This document shows, piece after piece, positions 1 to 30,698 of a stretch of 64,000 bases of DNA. Position numbers and translations under genes: made by a program. Positions within the stretch are counted from its first letter, which is position 1, and each line of letters starts with the position of its first letter. The DNA comes from an uncultured Thermoanaerobaculia bacterium (GTDB lineage Bacteria; Acidobacteriota; Thermoanaerobaculia; Gp7-AA8), in contig CAZLGP010000143.1 of the NCBI GenBank assembly GCA_964558905.1, positions 47,070 to 111,069 of the forward strand. The letters run 5' to 3'. The notes beneath the pieces are model-generated. The model was not told the origin of the DNA and made no database searches. It saw only the letters and a list, made by a program, of their open reading frames with translations.

Positions 1-152
1 GACCACCAGGCCGGGCTGGCCTCGCGGATGCCGCGTTCCAATTCGGCACGGATTGCGTGGAACCGCCGCGCGCGTTGCGGTATGGCCGATTCCCATTCCC
101 GCAATCGCCTCACGAGCGTGTCGAGCTGCGGACGTGCTCTCGTCACTCTCAT
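1..152 (-). CDS. Partial hypothetical protein, 5' end of the next gene of the vWA/tubulin operon (MRVTRARPQLDTLVRRLREWESAIPQRARRFHAIRAELERGIREASPAWW...), truncated by the window edge
   Basis: ATG at 152, 7 bp after the stop of the helicase-like gene, with GAGG upstream; frame open to position 1; not in the ORF track because it is truncated. Confidence 0.55.
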   Translation of the reverse strand, partial: MRVTRARPQLDTLVRRLREWESAIPQRARRFHAIRAELERGIREASPAWW

Positions 153-159
153 CGCAACC

Positions 160-3051
160 TCACACGACCTGCCGCAGCAGGCCCAGAGCCGCCGAGCGCA
201 TCGGCGGCAAGTCGATGTTCGCCGCGAGCGCCGCGGGCGAGCGCAGGCAACGCGGGCATCCTTGATCGCTCTGACATGGACAGGCCGCGAGCCAATTGCG
301 GCCCCATTCGAGCAACTGAAGCAGGAACGCGTCTTCTTCACCGATTGCGTCCACGACTCCGATGCCGCCGGGATACAGGTCGACGACGGCGAGTCCGAAG
401 GCGGGGCGGTTCTGGACGAACTCGCCGGTCAGCGGGACGACTTCGAGGGCGTCGTCCTCAACGCCGAGGTGTACGGGCAGGACATCGCGCAACATCTGTG
501 CGAGCGACGCGAGCGCCACGACGTCTTGCTCGTCGGGAAAGCGAAGGATGAGCGCGCGTGTGGCGAAATTGCCGGACACCGCGCGCGCGAGACGATGCGT
601 CTCCGGGACAGGCGCGGCTCCGGTGGTCAGGTTCGGCGTGAGACGCAGCCAGCCCACCACGTCCTCCTGATAGACGAGCGATGCAGCGAGGCGCGTCAAC
701 AGCCGCGCGCTCCTGCCGACGCCGACCGGCGCATCGGAAGACTCGACGCTGTACACACTTGCGCTGCGGATGCGCCAGGTGACGCCGTACACGTCGTCGC
801 GCGTACATGGCACCCAGCCGTCGTGCGCGACACGATCTGCCGCGTTGCTCCAGTCGCTGATGCGGCAGCGCTGTCCGCGATGCATGAAAACGCGGTGGGG
901 ATAGGCCTGAATGGTGAGGCGCTCCGGATCGACGCGCATGCGCACGCCTTGATCGAGCTCATGGCCTGCGGACGGATCGCGGACGTCGATGAGTTTTGCG
1001 CCGACGGTATCGAGCGGGCGCCGTTCGCCGGTCGGCGGGCGCTGACTCTTGTATTCGTGCTCGCGCTGCAGCTCGTCGTTCTCATCGAGGAAGCGGACTT
1101 CACGGCGCGTCAGCCTCCCTTCGTTCGCGATCTCTTCGAGCGTGTGATGAATCACATCCTCGTTCCAGAGGAAGGTCTTGAGCAGGCCGCTTCGCGTGTC
1201 CGGCAACTCGTTGAGCGCGAGCAGCAGGTGTCGTCGAACGACGCCCGGCTGCGCGGCGGCCGACACGAGCCGGCGCGATGTGTCGAAGCCATCGCGTCCC
1301 TCGAGCGTCGACAGCAGATAGCTGGCGTAGGGATTGGCCGGCAACGTGATGCCGATGTGGTGCGGCAACGTCTGGCTCGCGGCGCGTCCGCCGTGGCTGA
1401 CGATGTCGACGAGGGAGAGGACCTCGTTTGGCTCGACGGTCCGGATTCGCGCGGACGCGTCCGCGCAGGCAGGTTCGAGACGTTCCTGCAGCGGCTCGCC
1501 GTCTACCGCGAGCTGGAAGAACGCGGAGGTCTCGGCATCGCTGATGTCGGGAGGCGTTTCGAGATGCGTTCGCCACTGCTCTTCGACGGAGACTTTCGCG
1601 GCGACGAGGGACGGGTGGCGATAGCGCTCGCCGACGTTGCGTCCGTCGCCTTTTGCGAAGTACTCCGCGTGCGATTCGAGCACGTGGAGCCGGACTTCCC
1701 GCGCGAAGCGCGGCTCGATGTGCACGTCATCGTCGACATGCAGCGGATGCGGCAGCAGGCGCCGCACGAACGCGCCGAGCTGCGCTTCTCCGTGCGGCGT
1801 GCTGCGCACGAAGGCCAGCGTCCGCACGTCGTGACGGCCCATGGCTTCGAACAGCCGGTGCAGGCGTCGCGAAATCGCCCAGAGATTTGCGGCGAAGACG
1901 CCCGTGTAGGCTTCGAGATGCCACCACACGATCAGGCCGAAGCGCTCGAGGAGCAGCGGATTCTTGAGCTGCGGCAGGAGACGGTCCGACAACGACTGTG
2001 CATCGGTGACGACGATGAGCGCGTCCATGCCGATCTCGCCGGTCGCTCCGGCAACGGCCACGCGATGTCCGGCCGGCACCCATCGCCGCAACTCCGCAGC
2101 GAGTGCAGAAGCGTCTCCCGACGTGACGATGAGCGTCGCCGCGTGGAATCGCTGGTCGAGCAGTTCCGCCGCAAGCGCAACAACCTCCGTCTGTCCGCAG
2201 TCGTCAGGACCGAAGACGAGGCGGCTGCGCCCGCGATCCTCGTCGGTCGCGTTCAGAAGGCCGTGAAGTGCTTCGATCAGCTCGGGAGCGATCTCCTTTG
2301 CACCGGCGGCGCGCAGCCGGTCGGGCAAATCGCCGGAGACCGCAGCGCGGGCGGGGCGGGCCGGCGAACTGGCGCGCCACGCCGCGAGCTGCCGGAGCTG
2401 CACTCCGCGCGCGCGCAACGCCTCGGGCCACGGCATGACGCCGGGCTGAGAGGGCTTCGGCGTTTCACTCTTTTTGCGTATTGCGGCGACGAATTCCCCC
2501 TCGCTCGAGGCGACACCGATGAGCGACAGCAGGAGCAACGCGACCGTGGTCCATGCCGCCGCTGGATACGCGGATGGACCTCCGCCGAGGTTGGAGAAGG
2601 CGAGCAACAAGATCAAAGCCAGCGGAATCGTCCAGACCAGGACCCACCGCCGCGAGCTACGGAAGCCGATTCCGCCGGCGAGCCAGCGCGCGGCGTCGCG
2701 GTCTGCCGGCTTTTCGCCGACGCCGAACAACAGCAACAGCGCCCACACCCCCAGCGGGAGGAGCAGCGCGGCGCGATACGACTGCGCGAGCGGCCAGCCG
2801 AAGATTCCGGTGAGATCGAAGTGCAGGTGATAGCCGGGCTGCCACATGGCGGGCACGAGAACGAGCGCGCCGGAGATGAGCACCGGCACACCGAGGAAGA
2901 GCACGGCGCGGACGACCACACGCACCCAGAAGTCGCCGCGGTCTCCAGCCGGACGGCGGCGGAGCAGCGCCGTGCGATCCGCGACGATCGCGATGATCGC
3001 GGCGACCAGCACCGTCGCGAGGGGAAGCACGATGGCGTCGAACGTCTTCAT
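160..3051 (-). CDS. Membrane-anchored SF2 (DEAD/DEAH)-helicase-like protein with degenerate ATPase motifs and C-terminal DUF1998-like Zn-binding domain
   Basis: About 5 N-terminal hydrophobic helices. Motif I position reads GPDDCGQT, motif II position reads WWHLEAYTGVFAANL, C-terminus DLYPGGIG...CPCQSDQGCPRC. The ATG at 3051 overlaps the upstream stop (ATGA). Confidence 0.8.
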   Translation of the reverse strand: MKTFDAIVLPLATVLVAAIIAIVADRTALLRRRPAGDRGDFWVRVVVRAVLFLGVPVLISGALVLVPAMWQPGYHLHFDLTGIFGWPLAQSYRAALLLPLGVWALLLLFGVGEKPADRDAARWLAGGIGFRSSRRWVLVWTIPLALILLLAFSNLGGGPSAYPAAAWTTVALLLLSLIGVASSEGEFVAAIRKKSETPKPSQPGVMPWPEALRARGVQLRQLAAWRASSPARPARAAVSGDLPDRLRAAGAKEIAPELIEALHGLLNATDEDRGRSRLVFGPDDCGQTEVVALAAELLDQRFHAATLIVTSGDASALAAELRRWVPAGHRVAVAGATGEIGMDALIVVTDAQSLSDRLLPQLKNPLLLERFGLIVWWHLEAYTGVFAANLWAISRRLHRLFEAMGRHDVRTLAFVRSTPHGEAQLGAFVRRLLPHPLHVDDDVHIEPRFAREVRLHVLESHAEYFAKGDGRNVGERYRHPSLVAAKVSVEEQWRTHLETPPDISDAETSAFFQLAVDGEPLQERLEPACADASARIRTVEPNEVLSLVDIVSHGGRAASQTLPHHIGITLPANPYASYLLSTLEGRDGFDTSRRLVSAAAQPGVVRRHLLLALNELPDTRSGLLKTFLWNEDVIHHTLEEIANEGRLTRREVRFLDENDELQREHEYKSQRPPTGERRPLDTVGAKLIDVRDPSAGHELDQGVRMRVDPERLTIQAYPHRVFMHRGQRCRISDWSNAADRVAHDGWVPCTRDDVYGVTWRIRSASVYSVESSDAPVGVGRSARLLTRLAASLVYQEDVVGWLRLTPNLTTGAAPVPETHRLARAVSGNFATRALILRFPDEQDVVALASLAQMLRDVLPVHLGVEDDALEVVPLTGEFVQNRPAFGLAVVDLYPGGIGVVDAIGEEDAFLLQLLEWGRNWLAACPCQSDQGCPRCLRSPAALAANIDLPPMRSAALGLLRQVV

Positions 3052-5534
3052 TCGAGCTCCAGAAGACACTGCGGGTCCACGCCCGACTGGAAGCGCAGCA
3101 GGTATCCGCGGCCGTTGTCCGCGGCGGTGAGGACGAACTTGTCGCTCATCCGCAACCCGATGAGCTCCGCCTCGATGCCGTCCAGCCGTTTCCAGAGCTT
3201 CGGAAGGAGGCAGTAGCGTTGGTCGGGCGGCAGTCCCTGCTGGGCCTCGAAGCGGAACGCCAAGCTGAAGCCGCTACGTTGATGAAGGAAGCCGAGCAGC
3301 TCGCGCGCGATGCGCTCCTGCTGCGGTCCTTTGCCCGGTTGCGCGAGCTCCTGCTGAAACGGATCCTTGTAGAGGCGGCTCAAGCGCTCGAGGAATGCAA
3401 GCGGCACGAGGAACGAGCGGCTGTAGCGGTCATCCCACTCGCCGAAAGGCGCGGCTTCCGCTTGTGTGGACCGATAGCGTTCCGGCCCAGGCGGATTGCT
3501 GCGGAGCATGGCCTCGAAGTCCTCGCCGCGTTCCATCGAGTAGCGGATCCCGGTGTCGTTGCGATCGAGCCGTCCCTCCTCGGGGCGCAGAGCCTCACCC
3601 GTGAAGCCGTGCAGGCGCAGAAACTCGCGAAGCTGATTGCTGAGCCAGAGCATCTCCCGCAACCGTTCGCGCAGGCGGCCGAGCACGCGTCCGAGCTCGC
3701 GCGACACTTCGCCGCGCACGCTCTGATGGATATTGAAGAGAAGGCGCTCGATCAGCTGGTCGACCGGCGCGCGCAACGCTCCGCCCTCGGCGATCCCGCT
3801 GCGAAGACGATCGACGAATCGTCCGCGATCGTCATCGCTGTAGAAGCGTCTCGCGCGATCGATTCGGCCAGCGATGCCTCGATGAAACGCCAGTGCGCCC
3901 GCCGCCCACGAGCCTGCGAAAAGCACGGCACCGACGACCAATCCGTTGTTGACCCGCTGGAGAGCGGCGTGCGCACGGTTGAGGAGGAAGCGCGTGACAT
4001 CCGGCGGCGGAATGTCGCTGAGGAGCTCGGTGATGAGCGGCGTCAGTCCCGCGGCGAGCACCACGCCGAGAAGCGGCCACCACCAGCGCAGACCTTCGAC
4101 ATCGACGCGCTCATGCTGAAATCGTCCGTACGTCTGATGGAGGTTTTCGATCTCGCGCAGCAGCTCCTCGGCCCGGTTGACAGGCGGCGGTTCGATGCTC
4201 TGCGGCGGAACCAGCCGCTTCAGTAGCGCCTCGAGCTCGGCGATGACCGCGCCGACGCCTACGGGCTCGCGGGAATCCTGCAGATCCGCGTCGATGCCGG
4301 CGCGCACGGCCGTCGGAAGATCAACGAGATGATTGCGCGCGATGTCGGACATGAGCGTGTGCGCGGCCGCAGAGACCCGAGCCTCGACGCGACGAAGGGC
4401 TTTCGCGTAGCGCTCGCGAACGCGCTCGGGCCAGTCCGGCATGTCGATCGGCAGCGCCGTCAGTTCGCGCTCGAGCGCCGTGAAATCTTCTTCGGCCTCA
4501 GCGCGCAGCAGATCGCCGTCAATCAGCTCATCGAGTGCTTCGGGCGCGAACGGCGCCAGCCGCTCGCGGAGACGTTTCGGCTCGCCGTCACTGCGGAGGT
4601 GTCCCGCGCCTGCGAGATATTCGAGCCAGCCGATGCCGAAGCGCGCCGCGGCGAGCGAAGCGAGGAGTCCGGCGCTGCGCTCCACGAGGCGGATGCCGAA
4701 CGTCGCGAGCGCGGAGTCGTGAGCGCCCGCGGGCTGATAGAGCCGTCGCAGGTCGCCGTCGCGCATTCCCTCGAACAGCAGGAATTCGAGAAAGAGACTG
4801 ATCTCGTCGATGCGATGAGACGGCTCCCGAATGCCGTCGTCGGTTCGGCCGTCGACGAGATAGAACCGTCCGAACGCGGGTTTCCCCATGTTCCGGCGCC
4901 GCTGCCAGAAATCGACCGACGAATGCAGCGCCTTGCGGACTGTGCGCGCGTTCTCGGCGCGGTCCCAGTAGTTCTCGAAGTCGAACAGAGCGATGAAGTT
5001 CAACGCCTCGGCGCCCTGGACGGCGCGTCGAAGGTTGGCGTTGTTCGCAAGCATCTCGACTCCGGGCAACAGCACGCGGTCGAGCGTGCCGATGACTTCG
5101 CGGCTCGTCGGCCGGGCGAGGACGATGACGTCGAGTCCGAGCGGCAGAGCGTCGTTGCGGCCTGCGCGTCCCGCGGCGGAGAGTAGAGTCTCCGCCGACT
5201 CGACGAGCGCCTGCGCGAGACCGTCCGCACCGGAGTCGCTGCTCACCTCACGAATCTGGCGATAGAGGTCGCGCATCATCTCCAACGCGCTTCCTTCGCG
5301 CGCATCGATGCGCTCGAGCTCGTCTGCCGTTGCGAGCGGATCGGGCAGCCAGAGGAGCGCGAGGTCCTGGAGATGGCGCTCGCTCGGCCCGCCGCCGCCG
5401 CGAGGCTCTTCCCACCGCAGCACGCCGCGCGGCGCGGTGCTCCCGAGCAGCCGGCGCAGGACGTCGAGACCGAAGGCCCCGAAGCCAACGAGGATCGTCG
5501 CGCGATGCGCGCTGATGTCGTCAGTGGTAGTCAT
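3048..5534 (-). CDS. Degenerate tubulin/FtsZ-like domain protein with helical region and transmembrane hairpin
   Basis: N-terminal TILVGFGAFGLDVL loop but no GGTGSG signature. Hydrophobic pair WWWPLLGVVLAAGLTPLI / GLVVGAVLFAGSWAAGALAF. ATGA overlaps at both ends. Start at 5534 preferred over the ORF-track start 6179. Confidence 0.75.
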   Translation of the reverse strand: MTTTDDISAHRATILVGFGAFGLDVLRRLLGSTAPRGVLRWEEPRGGGGPSERHLQDLALLWLPDPLATADELERIDAREGSALEMMRDLYRQIREVSSDSGADGLAQALVESAETLLSAAGRAGRNDALPLGLDVIVLARPTSREVIGTLDRVLLPGVEMLANNANLRRAVQGAEALNFIALFDFENYWDRAENARTVRKALHSSVDFWQRRRNMGKPAFGRFYLVDGRTDDGIREPSHRIDEISLFLEFLLFEGMRDGDLRRLYQPAGAHDSALATFGIRLVERSAGLLASLAAARFGIGWLEYLAGAGHLRSDGEPKRLRERLAPFAPEALDELIDGDLLRAEAEEDFTALERELTALPIDMPDWPERVRERYAKALRRVEARVSAAAHTLMSDIARNHLVDLPTAVRAGIDADLQDSREPVGVGAVIAELEALLKRLVPPQSIEPPPVNRAEELLREIENLHQTYGRFQHERVDVEGLRWWWPLLGVVLAAGLTPLITELLSDIPPPDVTRFLLNRAHAALQRVNNGLVVGAVLFAGSWAAGALAFHRGIAGRIDRARRFYSDDDRGRFVDRLRSGIAEGGALRAPVDQLIERLLFNIHQSVRGEVSRELGRVLGRLRERLREMLWLSNQLREFLRLHGFTGEALRPEEGRLDRNDTGIRYSMERGEDFEAMLRSNPPGPERYRSTQAEAAPFGEWDDRYSRSFLVPLAFLERLSRLYKDPFQQELAQPGKGPQQERIARELLGFLHQRSGFSLAFRFEAQQGLPPDQRYCLLPKLWKRLDGIEAELIGLRMSDKFVLTAADNGRGYLLRFQSGVDPQCLLELE

Positions 5535-8500
5535 GACACGTCGACGTCGAGGTGGCCGAAGAGGCTGTCCTCGGAGGCCGCGGCTTTCGGCAACCAATCG
5601 ATCTGCCGTCGGATCTCCTCCCGCACCGCCTCCAGGATGGGCCCGTCGAGAGCATCTTCCTGAGTCATGCGGCCATCGCTCTGCCGAAGCTCCATCTCGG
5701 TCAGACGCTTTCCGATGCGACCGAGAAGCTCTTCGCGGCGGGTCAGTTCGTCTTCCGGCGTGACTCCCTCGTGCGCGCCGCGGAGGTCCTTCTCGAGCTG
5801 CACCTGTACGTTCGGCAGCCGATGGTACTCGCCGAGCCGGTACAGAGCGGTCGCTAGGCTGTTGCCGAGGATGACCGGCTTGTCCTGACCGCTGCGCTGC
5901 CACGAGATGCCCTGGCCGGGAGTATGCGTGATGACGCGCGTCCCCAAACCATCCGCGAGCATGCTCAGCGCCCAACCCACGGCGATCTCGGAACGTTTGG
6001 GATTGAGGTTGGGGAGCGACTCCTCCCAATGAAAGTCCGTGTGCAGGTGATACGACCGGTTCTTGTCGGCCGCTGTATGCAGATACGCGTCCTCGATCTC
6101 GCCGACGACCGCGTCGAGGTAGTAGAGCGGAATCGGCAGATCGACGTCGTGCACGATGATGAGCCGCGGGTCGTGCCACGTGGAATCCTTGATCTGCCGT
6201 CCGCCGGTGGATAGCACGTCCTTCAGGCGGTCGACGAATTTTTTCGAGGCTTGCGCGCGGCCTGCTTCACCGACGCCCACGATCAGTTGCCGCGTGTGGT
6301 TCGTCTTCGCGCCGTCGTCGAGCACCTTCGTGTCGGCAGCGCTGACGCGTGCGAGCACGCCGCACATCTGCGCGAGCGCGCGGAACTTCTTCTCGCGGTA
6401 GTCGTCGATCTCCGCTTCGGTGACGGACTGGCCGGGTAGCTTGTCCGACCCGACGACGAGCGTGGCCTCGAGCTCGAGTCCGCGCACGAGATCGAGCCCG
6501 GGCTGCCCGACCTGGCCGAAGATCGTCGGACGCATGCGTGCACGTCCAAGCTCGCGCAGGGCGCGCTGCAGATCGGAAACCGTCTGGTCGATCGACTTCT
6601 CCGCCACGGTACCGTCGGCGCGTACGACCGGTTTGAGCTCCTGCGTGATCGTCGACGCGAGCAGCTGGCGGTCGAACGTCGAGATGTATCGCCCGTCGTC
6701 GAGGAAGAGCGCGCGGTAGACGCGATCCCAGATGCGCTGCCGCGGCTCGTCGAGCGTCTCGAACACCTCGACGCGCAGCGCGAGCGGCGGGACGAGCGCC
6801 GTCTCGCCGCGGCGCAGGCGCTCGGCTTCGCGCTCGAGATCCTGTACCAGCGAGTCCATGCGCGTGGCGAGACGCGCGTACTGGCGCGAGCGGCGCTGCA
6901 GGAATTCGAGCAGGGCGCGCAACTGCCGCAGGCGGATCTCGGCGTCGAACATCGCGCGGGCCGCACTCGCGATCTCGCGGACGACGGCCTGGGCCTCGTC
7001 GCGTGCGGCGAGGAAGTCCTGATCTCCTCGGAACAGGCCGCGTTTCTCGGCCGCGGCTTTGAGGGCTTCGAAGATCTCACGCTCCACGCGTTCTCGCACC
7101 TTCGGATTGCTGACGTCGCGGCTTTTCGCCTTCTCGAGTTGCTGCTGCGCGTCCGGGATCAGCGTGCGCTCGCACCGCTCGAGGAGGCGGACGACGAGAT
7201 AGCGCTCCGCGATCGGATCGAGCTTCAGGTCGCCGATGACCTCGCCTTCCGCTGCCGCGGCTTCGAGGCCGCGGACGTTCTCATCGACGATGAGCCGCGC
7301 TCCACGGATGTCTTCGAGGAGGCGGTTCACGAGCTCGATGTACTGGTTGACGCCTTCGCGGTGGAAGACGAACGCGCGCTCCTTGATGGAGACGCGGTTG
7401 AGCAGGTCACGGCGCGCTTCTTCGAGCTTGCGCTCGATGAGGCGGGACTGCGACTCGGCGTGAACCGGCTCGCCTTTGTCGTTGACGCCGGTCTGTTCAC
7501 CCTCGTCGATCGACTCGACGAGGCGGTACCAGTAGCCGTCGAGCATGTCCTGCGTGGCGTCCTGCCGCGCCATTTCCTGGACCGAAGCGACGAACGATTG
7601 GTTGATGGCGCGCTCGCGCCGGTCGTCGGCCATGTTGAGGAACTTCGGGTCGGAGTAATTGATGGCGAGCTTGGCGAGCGCGCGTGCGCGGTCGTCGGCG
7701 GGATTGTTCGGATCGACGCTGAAGGTGATCTGGCTGCGAATGGCCTGCGCGGCGAAGCGCGTCGAAACGTATTCGAGCAGCTCGTGGCCGGGCAGCACCA
7801 TCGCCGCGGCGCCGAACGCGCCGAAGTTCTTCGTATAACCCTGGCCGACGTTGCGGAGCTCGCCCGGGAAGTGTGTCAGCTCGACGAGGTTCTTCTCGTA
7901 GTTGTCGATCTCACTGGCCATGTTGTCGATGATCGGCGTGAAGATCTGCAGGAACGCCGCATCGGCGACGGCCGCCGCGGCGTCCGGCAGAGCGAGGTGC
8001 GACGGACGATCGAAAATGAACGAGAGGAAGCTCGGCCTCGTGCGCACCTTCTGGACGGCGCGATTGTTCTCGTCGCGGCAATAAACGAAGTCGGTGTACT
8101 TCCGACCGGCCTGCTGAACCTTCGGATATCCAAGCTTCGTGAGGTATTCGATCTCCTTGAGCGCCGCGTACGTGTTCGCGTGGATGTCGGGATGGAGCTC
8201 CGGCCCCACCTTGTCGAGCATCAGCGTCGACAAGAGGAGATTCGAGATGACGCGCGGCTGCAGGTTCTGCTCGCGAAGGATGGCGTCGATCAAGTATGCC
8301 ATCGACAAATAGTTGCCTGAGCCTGTGCCTCCGGCGAGGGTGCAGAAGAGATAGACGTTGTACTTCTCGGCGGCGCGCCAGGTGATCCCGGGCCGCAAGC
8401 TCTCGGCGATGAGCTCCTTGAGCCGCTGCTTGATTTCGAGCGACTGGATGAAGAAGCCGAGCCGTGACTCAACGCGGATCTGTCCCGCGCCGGGTGTTTT

Positions 8501-8824
8501 CCCGGATCGAGGCTCGTATCCGGGGTCGAGCCACTGCAGCGCCTGCGGATCTTTCGAACGCCGGAAGTGCTCGATCGCCTTCGCTTTGTCGAAGACGGAG
8601 AGGTTCAGGCGATTGCCTTGCGGGATGTTGCGCAGCCGGTGCTGATCGAGATCGTTCGTGTCGATCGACACGAAGCTCGTCAGCGGCCGGAGTTGGCTCT
8701 CCCAGTTCGGCAGGACGGCGGCGCGGCCGGCGATCCGGTCGACGATCCGCGAACCCGTCCCGCCGAGGCCGATGAAAAGGGTAGGGGCGATGGATCCCTG
8801 GCCGCTTCGATACTCTTCGCTCAT
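5531..8824 (-). CDS. Tubulin/FtsZ-like GTPase (Tubulin_2/FtsZl1-type) with long helical/coiled-coil C-terminus
   Basis: FIGLGGTG, SIDTN, GAGQIR, TLAGGTGSG and ANTYAALKE motifs; AGGAG ribosome-binding site before ATG 8824. Confidence 0.88.
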   Translation of the reverse strand: MSEEYRSGQGSIAPTLFIGLGGTGSRIVDRIAGRAAVLPNWESQLRPLTSFVSIDTNDLDQHRLRNIPQGNRLNLSVFDKAKAIEHFRRSKDPQALQWLDPGYEPRSGKTPGAGQIRVESRLGFFIQSLEIKQRLKELIAESLRPGITWRAAEKYNVYLFCTLAGGTGSGNYLSMAYLIDAILREQNLQPRVISNLLLSTLMLDKVGPELHPDIHANTYAALKEIEYLTKLGYPKVQQAGRKYTDFVYCRDENNRAVQKVRTRPSFLSFIFDRPSHLALPDAAAAVADAAFLQIFTPIIDNMASEIDNYEKNLVELTHFPGELRNVGQGYTKNFGAFGAAAMVLPGHELLEYVSTRFAAQAIRSQITFSVDPNNPADDRARALAKLAINYSDPKFLNMADDRRERAINQSFVASVQEMARQDATQDMLDGYWYRLVESIDEGEQTGVNDKGEPVHAESQSRLIERKLEEARRDLLNRVSIKERAFVFHREGVNQYIELVNRLLEDIRGARLIVDENVRGLEAAAAEGEVIGDLKLDPIAERYLVVRLLERCERTLIPDAQQQLEKAKSRDVSNPKVRERVEREIFEALKAAAEKRGLFRGDQDFLAARDEAQAVVREIASAARAMFDAEIRLRQLRALLEFLQRRSRQYARLATRMDSLVQDLEREAERLRRGETALVPPLALRVEVFETLDEPRQRIWDRVYRALFLDDGRYISTFDRQLLASTITQELKPVVRADGTVAEKSIDQTVSDLQRALRELGRARMRPTIFGQVGQPGLDLVRGLELEATLVVGSDKLPGQSVTEAEIDDYREKKFRALAQMCGVLARVSAADTKVLDDGAKTNHTRQLIVGVGEAGRAQASKKFVDRLKDVLSTGGRQIKDSTWHDPRLIIVHDVDLPIPLYYLDAVVGEIEDAYLHTAADKNRSYHLHTDFHWEESLPNLNPKRSEIAVGWALSMLADGLGTRVITHTPGQGISWQRSGQDKPVILGNSLATALYRLGEYHRLPNVQVQLEKDLRGAHEGVTPEDELTRREELLGRIGKRLTEMELRQSDGRMTQEDALDGPILEAVREEIRRQIDWLPKAAASEDSLFGHLDVDVS

Positions 8825-8849
8825 TGCGTTCTCCTGCACCGTTCGCGCT

Positions 8850-11225
8850 TCATGCGTTTCTCAGTTCGAAAAAGAGGCTGCCCGGGTCGTTGCGATAGAG
8901 ATCGCCGAACCGCACGACCGATTCATTCAGGGGGATCTGTTCCCATTCGCCGTCGCTCCGTCGTCGCCAGACGACCGAGCCGCCGGCCGGTGTAATGCGC
9001 ACCTGCCTGCGGTCGGCGCGCAATCGTGCGATGGCATTGCGCGGCCGGCCCGAGAGCCGGAAGTCGCCGCAGATGAAGATCCGCGCGTCGCGATAGAACC
9101 CGCTCGACGACCCGCGTTGTCCTCGAATGGGATGGAAGAAGCCCTCAGCGATGTCTTCCTCCGGCGAGAGGACGACGCCGAGCCGCGGCGAGAATCGCGA
9201 CGGCGACCAGAAGCCGTGGATCACGATCGCCGCGACGATCGTGCCGACTGCCGCCGCGAGTACCGGCCACCAGCAGTGCAGCCACGAGTCGGGGACGATC
9301 TCGGCGACGATGGGAATCGTCGTGCGAATAGGCTGGCCGTCCGGTCCGGTGGCAGCGATCACGATCTCGAACGAATGCGCCGCGGGATTTCCCTCCGGAC
9401 AGGCGCCGACGCGCAGCCGGACCGGCCATGTGCGCCGTCCGTTCTGCGAAAGCTTCAACGTGAGCGGCTGCCGGCCGAGCGCGGCCCATCCGTTGCCGGC
9501 ATCGAGCTCGAGGATCGAGCGCGTGCGGTCGAACTGGGTGCTGACGCTCAGTTCGAACTCTCCCCGCACCTCGGCGGAGGAAAGATCGAGCTGCCCCATG
9601 CCAGTGGAGTTGCTCGCGAGACTGCCGAACCGGATCGGCTCGGAGCGCTGGAAGCGCAGCCGCCCGAGCACGACGAGCGGCGCATTGACCGATGTCGCGG
9701 GGCCACCGCCGACGGGCTTGTAATCGAGATGAATCGTTCCGGTGTCCGGCGGCGTCCACCTGCGTGCGAAGACGCGATCGCCGGCCTGCCGGTCGCCTTG
9801 TTTCCCGTCGTCGCGAAGGTCGATCACCTCGCGGCCGGTTAGGACGTCGACGCGCTCGGGCGGGCGCAGTGTCTCGGCGGCCGCGCCGACGGGTTTGGCA
9901 GCGACCGCCAGGTCGATCGGACGCCCGACCTCCGCTCGTTGCGGCGTGTGGACCTCCAGGCGCCACGCCGCGTCGACGACGTTCGCGGTCAGACTGGTCC
10001 GGCGGTCGAGAAAGTTGCTTTGGAGATGGACGTTGAGCGTCTGCTCGCCCGAGCGGTCGAATGTTGTGGTCGCCGTGAGGATGCCGTCGCCGGCCTGCCG
10101 GTCGCCATTCGTTCCGTCGTCGCGAAACGCGACTTTGCGTCCGTCGATCTCGAGCTCGGCCTGCAGGCCGGGAATGGCGGCGGTGTCCTTGATCCGCGCG
10201 CCGGTCCGTTCGTCGAACAGCTCCACTTCGATGGGTGCGGCGGTGCCGCGCGGCACGGTCGGCGAGGAGACCAGGCGCAGGCCGACCGCCGAGTCCTGCA
10301 GCAGCATCCATCCCGCGCGGTCGCCGACGCCGACGCCGCGGAACCGCCAGCGCCCAGGCGAGGGCTTTTCCAGACGGACGATTCGATAGCCGCGCAGGAT
10401 TCCGTCAAGCCCGGTCGTGGCGCCGCCGCCCCGGTGGTTCACGTCGATCGCCGCCGCGCTCGGATTTCCTGGCACCGGGGCGATCGCGGTGATCGGCCCG
10501 TCGGCGGCTACGACGAGAAACGCCTCGCTGACATACGGCGCGACCTCGACCGAGACCTCACCCGAAACGCGTCCGGTCTGAACCTGCTTCGCGCCGAGGA
10601 AACGTTGATAGACGAGGGCCACGGCTTCGATCAGCCCCTGGGCGTCGAGAGCGGCGGTTGTGAAGTCGAACGCTGGATTCGCGTCGAATGCGCCGGCGCT
10701 GCCGCCGATGTTGATCGCCGCGACGATGGCGCCGCCGCGTTTGAGCGTGAGCATCTCGTCGGTGAGGACGCTCTCGCATCTTCCCAGGCCGCCGGAGTCC
10801 GCGATGATGAGGAGCATCCGCTGCGTGTCCGGATCCGGCGGCAGCAGCGAGATCGCCGTGCGGATCGGCGCCGCGAAGTACGTGCCGGTGTCGAACGTGA
10901 GCAGGCCGTCCAGCCGGCGCTTGAAGTTGCCACGGTCCCGTGGATCGAGACGCAGAACGAGCGAAGACGAAGCGCGCTGGGAGCAAGCGGAGGAGAACAA
11001 CGATTCCGGCGGCATGCGGATCACCGACAGCTCGTTGCCCGCGTCAACGAGATCGGAGAGGATCTGCGAGAGTTGCATCGTGTACCGCCGCGCGTCCGCC
11101 TGCTGCATCGATCCCGACGTATCGACGACGATCGCCAGGCGGCGATTCGTCGCACCGAGCGCGGATGCAGCCAGCGCGAAGGAGCTCAGCAGCGACAGCA
11201 GGGAAGCCCACGGGCGCCGCATCAC
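8850..11225 (-). CDS. Secreted/membrane vWA-domain protein with two DDG..GD..AGD repeats (choice-of-anchor-X-like), TM helix and cytoplasmic tail
   Basis: Signal peptide; MIDAS DTSGSM...T...D; DDGTNGDRQAGDG and DDGKQGDRQAGDR; TM WWPVLAAAVGTIVAAIVIHGFW; GTGATG start overlapping the upstream stop. Confidence 0.85.
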   Translation of the reverse strand: MMRRPWASLLSLLSSFALAASALGATNRRLAIVVDTSGSMQQADARRYTMQLSQILSDLVDAGNELSVIRMPPESLFSSACSQRASSSLVLRLDPRDRGNFKRRLDGLLTFDTGTYFAAPIRTAISLLPPDPDTQRMLLIIADSGGLGRCESVLTDEMLTLKRGGAIVAAINIGGSAGAFDANPAFDFTTAALDAQGLIEAVALVYQRFLGAKQVQTGRVSGEVSVEVAPYVSEAFLVVAADGPITAIAPVPGNPSAAAIDVNHRGGGATTGLDGILRGYRIVRLEKPSPGRWRFRGVGVGDRAGWMLLQDSAVGLRLVSSPTVPRGTAAPIEVELFDERTGARIKDTAAIPGLQAELEIDGRKVAFRDDGTNGDRQAGDGILTATTTFDRSGEQTLNVHLQSNFLDRRTSLTANVVDAAWRLEVHTPQRAEVGRPIDLAVAAKPVGAAAETLRPPERVDVLTGREVIDLRDDGKQGDRQAGDRVFARRWTPPDTGTIHLDYKPVGGGPATSVNAPLVVLGRLRFQRSEPIRFGSLASNSTGMGQLDLSSAEVRGEFELSVSTQFDRTRSILELDAGNGWAALGRQPLTLKLSQNGRRTWPVRLRVGACPEGNPAAHSFEIVIAATGPDGQPIRTTIPIVAEIVPDSWLHCWWPVLAAAVGTIVAAIVIHGFWSPSRFSPRLGVVLSPEEDIAEGFFHPIRGQRGSSSGFYRDARIFICGDFRLSGRPRNAIARLRADRRQVRITPAGGSVVWRRRSDGEWEQIPLNESVVRFGDLYRNDPGSLFFELRNA

Positions 11226-13480
11226 CGGTACTCCATGCGGAAGAGGAACGAGCCTCGATCGGTGATGAGGCGATAAACGTGGCGGACCGCCAGCGTGACC
11301 AATCCTCGGCGCACCGACGTCGGGTCGTCGTCACGCAGAGCCTCGACGCGTACGCCGCTGGCGGGACGGAACTGGAAGAGCTCCTTGTCCACCGGACGCA
11401 CACGTCCGAGGAGGACGTTCTCGCCAGGCGCGACGACGGAACGCTCGGCGACCCATCCGAGGAGGTTCGCCGTGGATGCCTCGTTTAACGTTCGCCCGGC
11501 AAGATCCGCCGACGATTCTTCGGCCGCGATCGAATAATGGAGATCTCCCGGAATCACCGGCCGGTCGCGCAGATACCAGAGCGGCGCCACGAGACCGAGC
11601 AGCAGCAGCGAGGGGATGAGCATGAAGCGCCAGCGCTCGTACAGCGTCGGCGGCGCCACCGGAATCTTCAGGCGGAACGGCTTGACGACTCCGAACTCGT
11701 CGTATGGATCGTCCATCAGAGTCGTAACGAGCGTCAGGCCAACCGGCCGTGCGGGATTTCCCTCGGACGGCTTCCCCATCTGCACGCAGAGCTTGTGCTG
11801 CGACAGCAATTCTTCCGGCGCGAGCTGGCGTCCTTTGAACCACGCCGAGGGTTGTGTGGCGGGGCTGCCTTCCACTTCGAGCGGAAGGCCGTCGAGCGTG
11901 AACGACGCCTGACGGAGCTCGCGTTGCAGCACGGCCGGATCGCTCACCGAGAGAACGGCGCGAACGGGATACAGCGGCCGCTCAGGATGCGGCAGCCGGC
12001 CGCCGTCGAGCTGAAATACGAACTGCGTGCAGGAATGATCCTGCCGTCCGAGCGCCGTGCTCGACACGGAGGCGGTGCTCGGCAGGGGAGCGATGGAGAC
12101 GGGCGGATGGACTTCGACGCGATGCGCGTACATGCCATCGAGCGAGCCGACGACGGCTTCGCCGCGGCGCACCTCGACTTCGAGGTAGCCGGCGTACATC
12201 GCGCCTGGCTTTTCCGGATCCTCCGGAAACTCGACGTCGACGTCGAAGATCCTTCCCTCCGGTGTCGGAGTGCCTGCGCCGACCGCGGCGTTGCGATCGC
12301 TTCGCCACGCGTAGGACGCGTTGCCGGTGCCGCTGGCGACACGCTCCCCGCACATGCGAAACGACAGGTCGACCGCTCCTGGGTCTCCCTGTGCTCCGCT
12401 GGCGGCGCGAACGCGAATCCGCAACGGAAACGGGTTGCCGGCCAGAGCGCGTTCCGTCTGCTGGAGCGGCGGCACGGGGAGGACGTCGACGGCGAGCCGC
12501 GTCGGCCGCAGCACCGCCACGGTGCCGGCGGCGGCATCAGACGCGAATCCGTAGCGGCCGGTATTCGGTTGGAGCACCCAGGTCAGCGAGTAGCTGCCGC
12601 CCGGGACGGCGGCGTTCAACACGCCGTCCGGGTTTTGCACGGTGCCGCCCGGTGGCGCCGACAACACGAGGCTCGGCGGCGTCTGCGCCCGCGGCGTGAG
12701 CACTGCCACGGAGACGCGCTCCGGCGTGGTCTGCGCTTCGAGATCGAGGTCCGCCGTTCCGGGGATGCGATGCGCGGTGTCGGGCGAGAAGCCGAAGCTG
12801 CGCGAGAAGATCTCCAGCATCTGCGCGAGGAGCTGCGTGCCGTTCGGATCCACCAGCGATGCGCCGAGAGACGTGCCCTGCGGCGACGTCAACATGCGCG
12901 TGAAGAAGTCCTGGTTCTTCGCCGCCTCGGCGCCGAAGGCGAGCACGTAGAGGCGGATCCCATGTTGCTCGATGCGCGGCGCGAGCTCGTCTCGAATGCG
13001 CTGCAACTCCGCTTCGCGTGTCGAACGCTCGGGAACGCCATCGGTGACCAGCACGATCGCGCGGATGTCGTGCACTCCGCCCTTCTTCTGCTCCAGATCG
13101 CCGAGGGCGGCGGCGATGCCGGGATAGAAGTAGGTCATGCGGGCCTGGTACGGGAGCGCCTGCACGGCCTGCACGAAATCGTTGCGGTGCCCCGTCTGCG
13201 CAGCGATCCGGCGCTGCCGGCTCACCGGCGGTGGCGCGGCCGGATCGAGCCATCGCCAGTCGAGATCGAACGGGATGACGTCGAACGTATCGCCGCGCGT
13301 CGTGTTCGGCGCAGCGAGGTCGTGCAGCAGGAGCGTCGACAGGATCGCCATCCGTCCGGGATCGTTGGCCTTCATCGACGCCGAGAGATCGAGCACGACC
13401 CGCACGTGGACCTGTCGTGCCCAGAGCGGCGCGGCGAGCATCGCGAACGCGAACGACAGCGCGATCAGCGCACGCTTCAT
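11222..13480 (-). CDS. Secreted/membrane vWA-domain protein with TM helix and cytoplasmic tail
   Basis: Signal peptide MKRALIALSFAFAMLAAPLWA; MIDAS DLSASM...MTYF...LVTDG; TM FMLIPSLLLLGLVAPLWY; ATGA overlap at 13477-13480. Confidence 0.85.
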   Translation of the reverse strand: MKRALIALSFAFAMLAAPLWARQVHVRVVLDLSASMKANDPGRMAILSTLLLHDLAAPNTTRGDTFDVIPFDLDWRWLDPAAPPPVSRQRRIAAQTGHRNDFVQAVQALPYQARMTYFYPGIAAALGDLEQKKGGVHDIRAIVLVTDGVPERSTREAELQRIRDELAPRIEQHGIRLYVLAFGAEAAKNQDFFTRMLTSPQGTSLGASLVDPNGTQLLAQMLEIFSRSFGFSPDTAHRIPGTADLDLEAQTTPERVSVAVLTPRAQTPPSLVLSAPPGGTVQNPDGVLNAAVPGGSYSLTWVLQPNTGRYGFASDAAAGTVAVLRPTRLAVDVLPVPPLQQTERALAGNPFPLRIRVRAASGAQGDPGAVDLSFRMCGERVASGTGNASYAWRSDRNAAVGAGTPTPEGRIFDVDVEFPEDPEKPGAMYAGYLEVEVRRGEAVVGSLDGMYAHRVEVHPPVSIAPLPSTASVSSTALGRQDHSCTQFVFQLDGGRLPHPERPLYPVRAVLSVSDPAVLQRELRQASFTLDGLPLEVEGSPATQPSAWFKGRQLAPEELLSQHKLCVQMGKPSEGNPARPVGLTLVTTLMDDPYDEFGVVKPFRLKIPVAPPTLYERWRFMLIPSLLLLGLVAPLWYLRDRPVIPGDLHYSIAAEESSADLAGRTLNEASTANLLGWVAERSVVAPGENVLLGRVRPVDKELFQFRPASGVRVEALRDDDPTSVRRGLVTLAVRHVYRLITDRGSFLFRMEYR

Positions 13481-15624
13481 GTGCGGCCCCTCGTGGCAAC
13501 GCGGAAATACGGACCGCGTTCGCCGATGCGGTACACGTCGCCCGCGTGCGCACGCCGTCCCTGCTCCGGCACGGTCTCCCAATCGCTGTCGAGCGTCTCC
13601 CGATACAGCGACATGCCGCCGCCGGGGTTTACGTGCGTGCCGGAGCGTTCGGCGCGCAGCGACGCGACCGCGCCCTGTGGACTGCCGGAGAGACGAAAGT
13701 CGGGATGGAGAAACGCCCGTGCGTCGCGGTAGAAGCCGATGCCCACGCCTTTCCACTGCCGGACGGGCTGCGCGGTCTGCTCTTCGAGCTCGTCGCGCTC
13801 GGGCACGTACACGACGGCCAGGCCGCCCTGGAAGCGCTGCGGCACGACGTAGCCGCCGATGATGAAGAGCAGCAGGAGGATGCCGAGGATCGTGAGGATC
13901 AGCCAACCCCAGCGCTCCCAGAACGACAGCCCGTGCACCTGCCATCGCAGACGAATCGGAACCGCGTGCTCCTTTCGGTCGCTGCCCGCAACGCGCAACT
14001 CGAGCCACGGTTCGCCGGATGCGGTGGACGACGGCGCGAGCCGCGTCGTCGAAAGACAGACTTCGAGACGATCGCCGGCGTTCGCGCTGACGGCAGCGCT
14101 GCCAGGCGTCAATTTGCCCGCGGGCAAACGAACCTCGAGCGCGTGGCCCGACGGAAGACTCCGGAGACGCCGCAATTCGAACGGAACTTCTCCCTGATGT
14201 TCAGCCGTGAAGGCGAGAGGCCGGCAGGCAACGGCTTCGACGCCGATCGTGCCGAGGTCGATGTCGAGCGGCGGGCCGGCGTAGCGGAAGCTTCCCGCGA
14301 CGTTGACGACGACGTCGACAGTGCGGTCGATGAAGGGGCTGCGCACGTGCAGGCGGACCGGCACTTTGCCGGAGCCGCGAAAGGTCACCGCGCCGGTGAA
14401 GCGGCCGTCGCCGGCGGCGGCATCAGAATTTGCTCCCTGATCCGACAAAGTGACGGTCTGTCCCTGCACCTCGGCCGTGAACGTTGCGTCGCGCAGCAGC
14501 TCAGGATCGGTGACGAGATGTCCTTTGCCGGCGCTGATCCCTCCGACCAATCGGACCGGAGTCCCAGCGAGCGCACGCTGCGGTTCGAGCAGCACCGGTG
14601 CGAGCGCCGAGCGCTGCACGACGGCGTAGGCGACGCCGGGGCCGCCTCCCGACGCGCGCACCGTCCAGCGTCCGGCGAGCGGCAGTTCGATGTGGGCGAC
14701 ACGGTAGGCGCCGGCGCCGACCCAGCGATCCGCTGCGTAGTCGGCGCGAACCGGCTGTTGCGGTCCGTCGATGGTGACGTCGCCCAGCGTGTCGTCGCCG
14801 TAGACGACGATCCACGCTTCCTCGACGTGCTGCTTCATCTCGAAGCCCGGCTGGACGGAGACGAGGTTGTCGATTTCGTACGGAGCCTGGACGATGCGCC
14901 GGAACGATCCGGCGAACGCCTTCATGATCTCCGCCGGCGTGGAGACGCGGCGCGGGGTGAGGCCGGCGGCGATTGCGAGGTCCGTGTCGCCGAGGCCGAA
15001 GACGATCGCCTCGACCGCCACGCCCTCGGCCGCGAGCTCGCCGATGGCGTGGCCCACGACGGGGGCACTCTCGGACCGGCCGTCGGAGAGCCAGATGACG
15101 GTGCGCGGAACGCCGGCGGCCCGGGAAGGGTCGTTGCGGTGCTCGTCGAAGATCCCCTGCGCCGCACGGAAGGCGAGGTGGAACATGCTGTTTGTCGAGC
15201 GTTGCTCGAGATGTCCCTCCAGCGACTGCTTGAAGGCCGCGTCGCCGCGCGCGGGACGGGCCAGTGAGCCGAGTTTCTTGCTCCGTGCATCGGCTTCCCA
15301 GTCCGTCGCCGCGTCCACCGTGTGGCATGTGCGCGAGGGATCCTCCGAGCACGGCACGAACGTGCCGGTGGGGCGGCTGGGGATCACGTCCTTGTCGTCG
15401 TCGAGGTCGAGCAGGCGGACGACGGCCAGATCGCCGGGCACGATGTCGGCGAGCAGCTTCGTGACGAGCAGCGACGCGCGCGTCGGGTCCATCCCGTCCT
15501 GGCGCATGCTCGTCGAGGTGTCGACGATGACCACCGCGTCGGCGGTGGTGGGACGCCGGTCTTGGGCGGAGATCGTCGCCGCGAGTCCGATCACTAGCAA
15601 AGCGCGCGCAGCCCTCAGGTTCAT
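13477..15624 (-). CDS. Secreted/membrane vWA-domain protein with anchor-X-like repeat, TM helix and cytoplasmic tail
   Basis: Signal peptide MNLRAARALLVIGLAATISA; MIDAS DTSTSM...WLSDG; DQGANSDAAAGDGRFTG; TM WGWLILTILGILLLLFIIGGY; GAGG before ATG 15624. Confidence 0.85.
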   Translation of the reverse strand: MNLRAARALLVIGLAATISAQDRRPTTADAVVIVDTSTSMRQDGMDPTRASLLVTKLLADIVPGDLAVVRLLDLDDDKDVIPSRPTGTFVPCSEDPSRTCHTVDAATDWEADARSKKLGSLARPARGDAAFKQSLEGHLEQRSTNSMFHLAFRAAQGIFDEHRNDPSRAAGVPRTVIWLSDGRSESAPVVGHAIGELAAEGVAVEAIVFGLGDTDLAIAAGLTPRRVSTPAEIMKAFAGSFRRIVQAPYEIDNLVSVQPGFEMKQHVEEAWIVVYGDDTLGDVTIDGPQQPVRADYAADRWVGAGAYRVAHIELPLAGRWTVRASGGGPGVAYAVVQRSALAPVLLEPQRALAGTPVRLVGGISAGKGHLVTDPELLRDATFTAEVQGQTVTLSDQGANSDAAAGDGRFTGAVTFRGSGKVPVRLHVRSPFIDRTVDVVVNVAGSFRYAGPPLDIDLGTIGVEAVACRPLAFTAEHQGEVPFELRRLRSLPSGHALEVRLPAGKLTPGSAAVSANAGDRLEVCLSTTRLAPSSTASGEPWLELRVAGSDRKEHAVPIRLRWQVHGLSFWERWGWLILTILGILLLLFIIGGYVVPQRFQGGLAVVYVPERDELEEQTAQPVRQWKGVGIGFYRDARAFLHPDFRLSGSPQGAVASLRAERSGTHVNPGGGMSLYRETLDSDWETVPEQGRRAHAGDVYRIGERGPYFRVATRGRT

Positions 15625-15631
15625 GCTCACC

Positions 15632-17113: not shown

Positions 17114-17168
17114 GAAGATTCCTCTCTCCGGCAAAGACACCTTTTTTCGGATGAAGTTGAGCCGGACG

Positions 17169-24313: not shown

Positions 24314-24351
24314 CGTGTCTGTATGGACACGAGACGAAGGGAGATGTTGTC

Positions 24352-26232: not shown

Positions 26233-26274
26233 GCTGTGGCCCCCCTGCAGCGGAGCCACAGCTCACGGCGAAGT

Positions 26275-27342: not shown

Positions 27343-27348
27343 GACCTC

Positions 27349-30678: not shown

Positions 30679-30698
30679 CTCCTGGAAGAGGCGCAATG

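Follow-up and report, generated by a model that had tools for sequence, protein, structure and literature searches.

Which role can a helicase fold have in a membrane protein that lacks the canonical motifs of an ATPase? This question is raised by a gene at positions 160-3051 of a 64,000-nucleotide stretch of DNA (the window) from an uncultured Thermoanaerobaculia bacterium (contig CAZLGP010000143.1, positions 47,070 to 111,069; assembly GCA_964558905.1). The gene encodes a membrane-anchored, catalytically degenerate protein of 963 amino acids with an MrfA/YprA fold, termed the target protein below; all window positions given for it and for its operon refer to the minus strand. A first-pass annotation, made from the letters alone, had described a membrane-tethered pseudo-helicase here, and the observation of a membrane-tethered degenerate helicase was confirmed. 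The target protein is most likely an ATPase-dead membrane adaptor or sensor subunit.

The loss of helicase motifs I and II, which had been read from the bare sequence, was borne out by profile alignments to MrfA, and a loss of motif III was found in addition. Motif I of the target protein is degenerate (GPDDCGQTE, residues 281-289, 2185-2211; family consensus PDxCGQxE) and was placed via a bridge of distant relatives, in an alignment of the target protein with its sister clades (A2). In this alignment, C-G286-Q287-T288-E289 shares a column with GAGKS, GCGKT, GSGKT and SGKS of the sisters, and the A2 profile aligns its consensus tppgsGkseia to TPTASGKTLCY of MrfA (overall E=5.8e-47). Because the GK[ST] column of the sisters aligns to SGKT of MrfA, Q287 takes the place of MrfA K82. 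The motif II region (WWHLEA-YTGVFAAN, residues 376-389, 1885-1926, followed by WAISRRLHRL) combines a degenerate motif with a retained YprA-type signature. HMMER aligned W377-H378-L-E of the target protein to D185-E186-L-H of MrfA, where the family reads vvWWhleaytGVlaAnlWAisRRLhRL (the PDB numbering in the HMMER output is +2 relative to that of PMC7797055). The YprA-type segment after motif II is kept (YTGVFAANLWAISRRLHR, aligned by HMMER), with G384, V385, R395, R396 and R399 being invariant. At the position of motif III, the HMMER alignment has V415-R416-S417 (1801-1809) for S222-A-T (SAT) of MrfA, and PTKAL of MrfA motif Ia corresponds to T(S/A)xxxA in the family. A partial motif VI, S-H-G-G-R (1384-1398; family consensus QGGR), was placed by position and pattern only. 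G555 and R556 are invariant in this region and [QH]xGR is present in 91 of 107 family members, while there is no counterpart to the second Arg of the canonical QxxGRxGR.

Canonical motifs elsewhere in the protein were ruled out by alignment and string search: GK[ST] does not occur anywhere in the 963 residues, and the only DE.[HD] strings (DEND at 656 and DEQD at 840) are located in loops outside the RecA domains, so that the earlier reading stands. Mutants in motifs I, II and III of MrfA have been reported, and K82A and DE185-186AA are standard inactivating changes (PMC7797055). Judged by established superfamily 2 (SF2) chemistry, the changes from K to Q, DE to WH and SAT to VRS would leave no coupling of ATP hydrolysis to translocation. 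The target protein is predicted not to hydrolyse ATP and hence neither to translocate along nor to unwind nucleic acids.

The altered motifs are common to close homologues encoded in the same operons. In an alignment of 32 homologues of the target protein with identities down to 37% (A1), which was also used for structure prediction and as a search profile, PDxCG(Q/E)xE, VWW and a Lys-less motif I were found in 32/32 sequences. Among 107 full-length proteins retrieved that carry WW....[YFW][TSA]G[VI], the P-loop position reads GQ in 92 and GE in 4, and none (0/107) has GxGK[ST] between the transmembrane (TM) region and the WW. The substituted residues themselves (G286, E289, W376 and W377) are as invariant as G384 and the Arg residues that follow it. 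A pairwise Nei-Gojobori comparison with an 85%-identical orthologue (locus L004) yielded a dN/dS of 0.11 overall, with values of 0.067 for RecA1, 0.127 for RecA2, 0.093 for WH-OB-CON, 0.057 for MZB and 0.216 for the TM domain. The invariance of the replaced residues and the high constraint on RecA1 suggest that the former ATP cleft was converted to a conserved structural or binding surface and did not decay. These values indicate strong purifying selection on a functional gene, whose former ATP site ranks among the most constrained parts.

A homologue search returned 70 clusters of full-length homologues, which together with the dN/dS of 0.11 and an invariant synteny argue for a real gene and not for a chance reading frame. 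Translation starts at an ATG at 3051 and ends with the stop codon at 160-162, giving 963 residues; the program-made call of the open reading frame begins further upstream, with a GTG at 3069. In an ATGA, the start codon shares bases with the stop codon of p830, the next gene upstream. All motif strings of the first-pass annotation were recovered in this translation (GPDDCGQT at residues 281-288, WWHLEA at 376-381, YTGVFAAN at 382-389, DLYPGGIG at 891-898 and CPCQSDQGCPRC at 924-935). An open reading frame of 1062 codons on the plus strand (28-3216), antisense to the target gene, has an Arg/Ala/Gly-rich translation without homology support and represents a shadow frame of high-G+C DNA (67% G+C). 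It was ruled out as the true gene, as homology, Pfam matches, fold and synteny are all on the minus strand.

The SF2-like core noted earlier was recovered by fold and profile searches, but not by Pfam helicase models. A Pfam scan of the target protein (E<=0.1) gave no DEAD, Helicase_C or other helicase model and only the MZB/DUF1998 match (PF09369; 32.8 bits compared to a cut-off of 24.2; residues 850-936). The AlphaFold2 (AF2) model of the target protein (mean pLDDT 86.7, pTM 0.76) has four MrfA/YprA chains as its best Foldseek matches in the PDB, with an E-value of 5e-26 for 6znp_A, to which approximately 770-820 columns were aligned at a TM-score of 0.54-0.66 normalised to MrfA. Next came Hel308, PolQ and Brr2 at E-values around 1e-8. 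In profile searches against the PDB, A1 matched MrfA in two stretches (E=7.8e-10), and the wider A2 matched it at E=5.8e-47.

The order of MrfA domains after RecA2 is WH-OB-CON-MZB (PMC7797055). In the AF2 model, RecA2 is followed by a WH-like part made of helices, then by long beta hairpins and by a C-terminal domain that is again helical, and this order of secondary structures fits that of MrfA. According to the model, the complete RecA1-RecA2-WH-OB-CON-MZB architecture of MrfA/YprA is present in the target protein. The RecA1-like domain (residues ~205-435, 1747-2439) shows the beta-alpha topology in the AF2 model and aligns to MrfA residues 28-251 by hidden Markov model (HMM) comparison. 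The RecA2-like domain (residues ~436-572, 1336-1746) was assigned by AF2 and Foldseek; it is the most diverged part of the target protein and has no match to MrfA at the sequence level, the HMM alignments skipping this region. The WH, beta-rich OB and CON-like region (residues 573-843, 523-1335), delimited by AF2 secondary structure and Foldseek, contains an invariant motif, VDPERL..AYP..F....G.R, at residues 707-728, and an HMM stretch covering residues 632-960 of the query matches MrfA 427-732. The C-terminal MZB (DUF1998) domain (residues 844-963, 163-522) was identified by Pfam (PF09369) and by HMM alignment to MrfA 580-733. It harbors a putative four-Cys Zn knuckle (CPCQSDQGCPRC, residues 924-935, 247-282) that aligns to CPCHDGCPSC of MrfA. 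The knuckle had been called intact, which holds for the target protein itself but not as a feature of the family: it is missing in 9/32 aligned members and 27/107 overall, where other residues replace the cysteines and the flanking DLYPxGIG and W..WL are kept. The Zn site thus seems to be dispensable for the function of the family.

The N-terminal domain (residues 1-185, 2497-3051) carries five TM helices, where about five had been estimated. Hydropathy revealed five hydrophobic segments (residues 1-25, 42-66, 91-112, 135-155 and 163-182), and these are matched by five long helices in the AF2 model. Arg and Lys residues cluster in loops 1 and 3 of this domain, so that, by the positive-inside rule, the N-terminus would lie outside and the helicase-like body on the cytoplasmic side. 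A periplasmic loop motif (G.HL.FDLT, residues 73-81) and a cytoplasmic loop (RWLAG, residues 122-126) are conserved in the family. Near-invariant columns of the TM domain in the 32-homologue alignment are W42, S60, G73, H75, L76, D79, P99, W123-G126, R134, W136 and W167.

A profile search of 1.84 billion representatives retrieved 310 proteins at E<=1e-3. Beyond the core family, these are proteins of 940-1420 amino acids with approximately 20% identity to the target protein, nearly all of which begin with several TM helices. Several such sisters (P0170, P0172, P0184, P0190-192 and P0208) have GxGK[ST] and an E-D pair in the columns of the target's W-H; P0206 has GxGK[ST], but D-Q instead of E-D, and in P0197, P0200, P0204 and P0186 the Lys position reads GR. 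Several of the GxGK[ST] sisters give weak Pfam DEAD matches, and by their motifs these sisters are probably active ATPases. They share with the target protein the length class, the N-terminal multi-TM domain and the MrfA-like body, and P0170 and P0184 also share the slot after Tubulin_2 and a p830-sized gene; they differ from it by the motif I Lys and the acidic pair, both of which the target protein lacks. Since membrane-anchored sisters keep GxGK[ST] and the acidic pair at the same operon position, the motif loss in the target family appears to be secondary. The alignment further suggests that the membrane anchor predates the inactivation and that the ATPase site degenerated more than once. 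The target protein had been described as repurposed, which is right in direction but not in timing: recruitment predates inactivation, as the active-looking sisters are already membrane-anchored and located beside Tubulin_2 and p830.

Upstream of the target gene, Tubulin_2 (FtsZl1; 5531-8839; Pfam PF13809, E=4.9e-40, 138 bits), a protein of 1102 amino acids with an intact AGGTGSG loop, and p830 (3048-5534; 828 amino acids) are encoded. Both the Tubulin_2/p830 and the p830/target pair overlap by ATGA. Gene context was compared in five contigs reached via the proteins and in 29 loci from GTDB contigs with one genome per species. The gene order is invariant wherever the flank suffices: vWA, vWA, Tubulin_2, p830, target, cc772 (a coiled-coil protein), DO-GTPase and p489. 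Approximately 25 loci, distributed over Acidobacteriota and Gammaproteobacteria, show the identical order. At 29 loci among 185,579 species genomes, the family is rare and patchily distributed, with hosts among the Acidobacteriota (Thermoanaerobaculia, Holophagales and Bryobacterales) and the Gammaproteobacteria (Methylococcaceae, Competibacteraceae and Chromatiaceae). Two genes downstream of the target orthologue, Pfam DO-GTPase2 matches were obtained in L004 (30.2 bits) and L003 (34.8 bits; cut-off 27), and the DO-GTPase of the orthologous loci has an intact GPAAAGKT P-loop. In the locus of the sister P0170, Tubulin_2, an 802-amino-acid protein, P0170, GAP1-N2 (PF20013), a 526-amino-acid protein and DO-GTPase2 are encoded; that of P0184 comprises vWA, vWA, Tubulin_2, an 859-amino-acid protein and P0184. 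Invariant synteny and the ATGA overlaps make the target gene an integral part of the tubulin/vWA gene cluster, as the first-pass annotation had supposed, but the system is larger than the two names say: a coiled-coil protein, a DO-GTPase and probably a GAP1-like protein follow in the orthologous loci.

The tightest partner of the target protein is p830, which always adjoins it in the loci examined. Its family (92 clusters) is annotated as hypothetical throughout and has no Pfam match; a homologue is also found in Methylovulum psychrotolerans. In the AF2 model of p830 (pLDDT 86.0), the fold of the N-terminal ~300 residues matches those of FtsZ and of gamma-, alpha- and beta-tubulin (Foldseek, probability of 1.00, E=2e-3 to 1e-2). 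The GGTGSG loop is absent from p830, and a two-helix hydrophobic hairpin is located at residues ~490-554 within a long helical region. BLASTP detected no similarity between Tubulin_2 and p830, their relationship appearing at the fold level only. Going by the model, p830 looks like a membrane-inserted pseudo-tubulin. From the folds and the state of the motifs, the operon would combine Tubulin_2 and the DO-GTPase, both predicted to be active GTPases, with p830 and the target protein, both of them inactivated NTPase folds embedded in the membrane. Weaker Foldseek matches of the helical part of p830 were to the alpha-pore-forming toxins SmhB and AhlB.

With B. subtilis MrfA/YprA (PDB 6ZNP, 6ZNQ and 6ZNS; PMC7797055), the target protein shares the domain architecture, the signature after motif II (Y.GV....(V/L)(A/W).(V/I).RRL.R) and an MZB domain in which both DxYPGGIG and the four-Cys knuckle are found. 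MrfA itself is soluble and acts as a 3'-5' repair helicase (PMC7797055), whereas the target protein adds the N-terminal 5-TM domain and has GQT for GKT, WHLE (preceded by a second Trp) for DELH and VRS for SAT. It also lacks an MrfB-type exonuclease partner, its partners being tubulin-like, vWA and DO-GTPase proteins. The DUF1998/MZB module is further shared with the YprA-family cores of defence systems (DISARM DrmA/DrmB, Druantia DruE, Dpd and ARMADA; PMC12458937, PMC9142583). These are soluble, catalytically active and often linked to nucleases or methyltransferases, in contrast to the membrane-anchored target protein without nuclease, methylase or active motifs. In a PADLOC scan, the MZB region of the target protein weakly matched the C-terminus of DruE (17.4 bits, E=1.7e-4); p830, Tubulin_2 and two vWA genes, the neighbours scanned, gave no match, including none to partner genes of DISARM, Druantia or Dpd. 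The family profile also gave an HMM match to a DEAD/DEAH helicase of 2108 amino acids (9tu7_Y). The 2025 survey of the YprA family (PMC12458937), figures aside, does not mention transmembrane, tubulin or vWA branches.

The gene cluster resembles two previously described groups of systems. Makarova and Koonin defined operons of FtsZl1 (now Pfam Tubulin_2) with vWA proteins, a diverged GTPase and unnamed membrane proteins in 2010, for which membrane remodelling was proposed (PMC2875224). In the present loci, too, Tubulin_2 is linked to vWA proteins of the membrane, along with a diverged GTPase and several large, uncharacterised proteins that are likewise membrane-bound. The families B1-B9 of that study are given only as "membrane-associated" or "large" proteins (PMC2875224), and neither a helicase nor a Zn-binding domain is named for FtsZl1 operons in its text and supplement, figures aside. 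In 2020, Kaur, Burroughs, Iyer and Aravind described conflict systems with DO-GTPase and GAP1 in eLife, one theme of which combines tubulin-domain proteins with membrane vWA proteins (PMC7159879). Similar to these, the target loci have a DO-GTPase, two tubulin-domain proteins per operon (the same number as in the Firmicutes version) whose tails are helical or coiled-coil, membrane proteins with extracytoplasmic vWA, a membrane-proximal location and frequent inactive enzyme domains, the latter being stressed as a hallmark by Kaur et al. (PMC7159879). The tubulin theme was described as restricted to Firmicutes and Actinobacteria (PMC7159879), unlike the target loci in Acidobacteriota and Gammaproteobacteria, and GAP1 is not recognisable by Pfam in the target lineage. 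No helicase or DUF1998 component of these systems is mentioned in the text and supplement of PMC7159879, figures aside, and when the literature was searched for anti-phage systems that are tubulin-like and contain vWA, no paper treating the module of the target protein came up. The locus is a probable defence system of the DO-GTPase/tubulin type of predicted conflict systems, matching those of Kaur et al.

We consider it fairly probable that the target protein is an inner-membrane-anchored YprA/MrfA derivative incapable of ATP hydrolysis, which has become fixed as a subunit, structural or regulatory, of a tubulin machine at the membrane. Its five TM helices would hold the complete MrfA-like body on the cytoplasmic face, and it is translated in tandem with the predicted active Tubulin_2 GTPase and p830 via the ATGA overlaps. 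Target protein and p830 may form a membrane platform that tethers and positions the Tubulin_2 polymer. The target protein might relay a conformational signal from the extracytoplasmic vWA sensors, or from its own periplasmic loop (G.HL.FDLT), to the cytoplasmic DO-GTPase switch, and a static grip on single-stranded nucleic acid, with no movement along it, may have been retained by the protein. As the sisters look like active ATPases, the ancestral module probably used ATP-driven translocation. The target lineage would have swapped the motor for a static adaptor, which would leave the two GTPases as the sole energy consumers.

Several points weigh against this picture. We infer the ATPase-dead status from the sequence, and the adaptor or relay role from gene order only. 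As motif VI is partly retained, with an invariant R556, and E289 is invariant too, the protein might still bind a nucleotide without hydrolysing it. The DO-GTPase was seen only in orthologous loci, the window ending 50 codons into cc772. The Lamprocystis/Chromatiaceae clade has the p830-target pair alone, with the same degenerate motifs and with neither Tubulin_2 nor DO-GTPase nearby, so that this pair may act on its own, independently of tubulin. That the system serves defence is a prediction from the literature, and Makarova and Koonin proposed membrane remodelling instead (PMC2875224).

The nearest alternative overlaps with the adaptor or sensor subunit favoured here and would refine it. 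The protein could be a static nucleic-acid sensor that keeps the channel of MrfA for single-stranded DNA and binds nucleic acid at the inner membrane, for instance injected phage DNA, without translocating it; the binding would trigger tubulin polymerisation or GTPase switching. The full set of domains that encircle DNA in MrfA (WH, OB, CON and MZB) is kept with high model confidence, many Arg residues are invariant (R594, R607, R653, R691, R711, R720, R728 and R760), sister clades look like active translocases at the same position, and helicases of the YprA family are the DNA-sensing cores of DISARM, Druantia and Dpd (PMC12458937). The mapped DNA-contact positions of MrfA, however, are not kept in the A1 profile alignment, where H168 is replaced by Lys or Gln and K171 by Asn or Asp (numbering of PMC7797055). 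Motif Ia PTKAL is replaced by T(S/A)xxxA as well, and RecA2, which bears R298 and R333 in MrfA, is the most diverged domain and without a sequence match. A nucleic-acid sensor, which the first-pass annotation had offered as one reading, gained support from none of the tests made here; it is possible, though we regard it as the lesser option. If the protein were still a motor, PDxCGQxE and QGGR would have to bind and hydrolyse nucleotide by an unusual mechanism. It is true that the substituted residues are invariant and not random, that invariance also holds for E289 and for R556, the latter at the place of the arginine finger in motif VI, and that RecA1 is very strongly constrained. Against a non-canonical NTPase stands the joint loss of the P-loop Lys, both acidic residues of Walker B and motif III, with two bulky Trp in the Mg2+/water-activating site, and we know of no SF2 enzyme that works without both the Lys and the acidic pair. 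K82A and DE185-186AA are also the standard inactivating changes in MrfA (PMC7797055). We regard an active motor as very improbable.

A different doubt concerns the system as a whole, which might be a housekeeping machine for membrane remodelling or the envelope, as in the FtsZl1 hypothesis, and not a conflict system. The pseudo-helicase would then be a mere anchor for a cytoskeletal filament without a link to nucleic acids or invaders. Most of the components are indeed membrane proteins, Tubulin_2/vWA operons were first read in this way (PMC2875224), and apart from the weak match to the DruE C-terminus no PADLOC model matched any of the five proteins scanned. The very sparse and patchy occurrence (29 loci in 185,579 species genomes), the variable upstream genes including TIR, the adjacent CHAT and caspase genes, the DO-GTPase and the GAP1-N2 of a sister locus speak against it, being hallmarks of predicted conflict systems (PMC7159879). 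A conflict role is favoured by the patchy distribution together with the variable TIR/vWA neighbours and the CHAT and caspase genes, and we judge a housekeeping machine unlikely. That the gene is a decaying relic on its way to a pseudogene might be suspected from the lost catalytic motifs and from the Zn knuckle, lost in a quarter of the members. This is ruled out for practical purposes: dN/dS is 0.11 over the full length, approximately 100 intact full-length homologues, with aligned identities as low as 37%, have retained the same substitutions in their motifs, the synteny is maintained along with the translational coupling, and the AF2 model is confident. A wider and rather doubtful extension of the adaptor or sensor subunit is that membrane-anchored YprA-like proteins form the invader-sensing gate of a cytoskeletal immune machine, with active motors in some clades and a frozen, ATP-independent form in the target protein. 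Together with the pseudo-tubulin, the latter would capture nucleic acid or a vWA signal and nucleate the Tubulin_2 polymer under control of the DO-GTPase, which would contain the invader or kill the cell.

Known helicases of the YprA/MrfA type are soluble enzymes that are driven by ATP and act in DNA repair or in one of several anti-phage systems. In the target protein, the same fold was recruited with a membrane anchor into tubulin/GTPase gene clusters, and in one lineage the motor appears to be switched off with the fold under strong selection. A membrane-anchored YprA-like subunit appears to be ancestral to the Tubulin_2/pseudo-tubulin/DO-GTPase module, which extends past the window edge, the target lineage being an inactivated branch. 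The GxGK[ST] sisters and the family with GQxE and WW form a natural active/inactive pair in one operon slot. At least two cultured hosts appear to carry the module, namely Lamprocystis purpurea DSM 4197 (p830-target pair) and Methylovulum psychrotolerans (p830 homologue). With the active/inactive pair, the pseudo-tubulin partner and the cultured hosts, experiments on the FtsZl1/DO-GTPase systems, which were predicted in 2010 and 2020, come within reach. Should the system prove defensive, immune systems built on YprA-family proteins would extend to a cytoskeletal, membrane-bound type. If the YprA-like proteins are indeed the gate for invaders, the YprA lineage of DISARM, Druantia and Dpd would be linked to tubulin-based immunity, with a bacterial motor turned into a static sensor.

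The remaining genes of the operon in the window encode mainly membrane proteins. Upstream of Tubulin_2, vWA protein D (8850-11225; Pfam VWA_2) has a signal peptide, an extracytoplasmic vWA domain, a C-terminal TM segment and a cytoplasmic tail, and is kept in the orthologous loci. The vWA protein C (11222-13489) has the same layout and was assigned by TM segments, synteny and a Pfam VWA match below the cut-off (E=2.7e-4, 21.6 bits; cut-off 23.8 bits). Farther upstream, a third vWA protein (13477-15654; Pfam, TM segments), again with signal peptide, extracytoplasmic vWA, C-terminal TM and cytoplasmic tail, and a fourth (17169-18857; Pfam) are encoded. All four vWA proteins of the window carry TM segments. 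The proteins at 8850-11225 and 13477-15654 have a common cytoplasmic tail after the C-terminal TM, which begins with GFYRDAR.F...DFRLSG, has no Pfam match and could contact cytoplasmic machinery. Between the genes of the third and the fourth vWA protein, a multi-TM protein of 502 amino acids with approximately 5-6 TM segments is encoded (15632-17140); it gave no Pfam match, including none to the OmpA-like domain reported for such operons by Makarova and Koonin. The genes upstream of Tubulin_2 are variable, with vWA in most loci. In the slot just upstream of it, a TIR-domain protein is encoded in L003 (2015-3472) and a pentapeptide-repeat protein in L002 (1966-4203). This slot is an effector- or sensor-like variable position.

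Downstream of the target gene, only the first 50 codons of cc772 are present in the window (1-152, ATG at 152-150), the gene for the coiled-coil protein of ~770 amino acids being cut by the window edge. Their translation, MRVTRARPQLDTLVRRLREWESAIPQRARRFH, agrees with the consensus that the orthologues show at the N-terminus (alignment A3). When 10 orthologues of cc772 and 10 of p489 were scanned with Pfam, no consistent match was obtained, and none to GAP1 for p489. Comparisons by hhalign to the sister locus of P0170 (L035) were not significant for cc772 and the 526-amino-acid protein, and gave E=0.076 with a probability below 1% for p489 and the GAP1-N2 protein. The DO-GTPase of the Thermoanaerobaculia (L004, 15221-16894) has an N-terminal extension of approximately 300 residues, while it is a stand-alone GTPase of 250 amino acids in other lineages. 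The extension is paralogous to the N-domain of the downstream p489 (L004, 16891-18360), with which it shares ERG(I/V)WGKVH..DF.WIA. It fits the GAP1-GTPase fusions of the literature, and p489 is probably GAP1-like.

The p830-target pairs standing alone are located in L025 (7411-12925; Lamprocystis purpurea DSM 4197), L024, L029 and L031, beside genes for AAA-ATPase_like/PD-(D/E)XK and efflux proteins. In the window, a predicted protease-type conflict gene cluster (18891-30696) adjoins the operon. It comprises genes for a CHAT-TPR protein (18891-22064), a caspase (22061-24313), a caspase with FG-GAP repeats encoded on the other strand (24352-26232) and a second CHAT protein (27349-30696).

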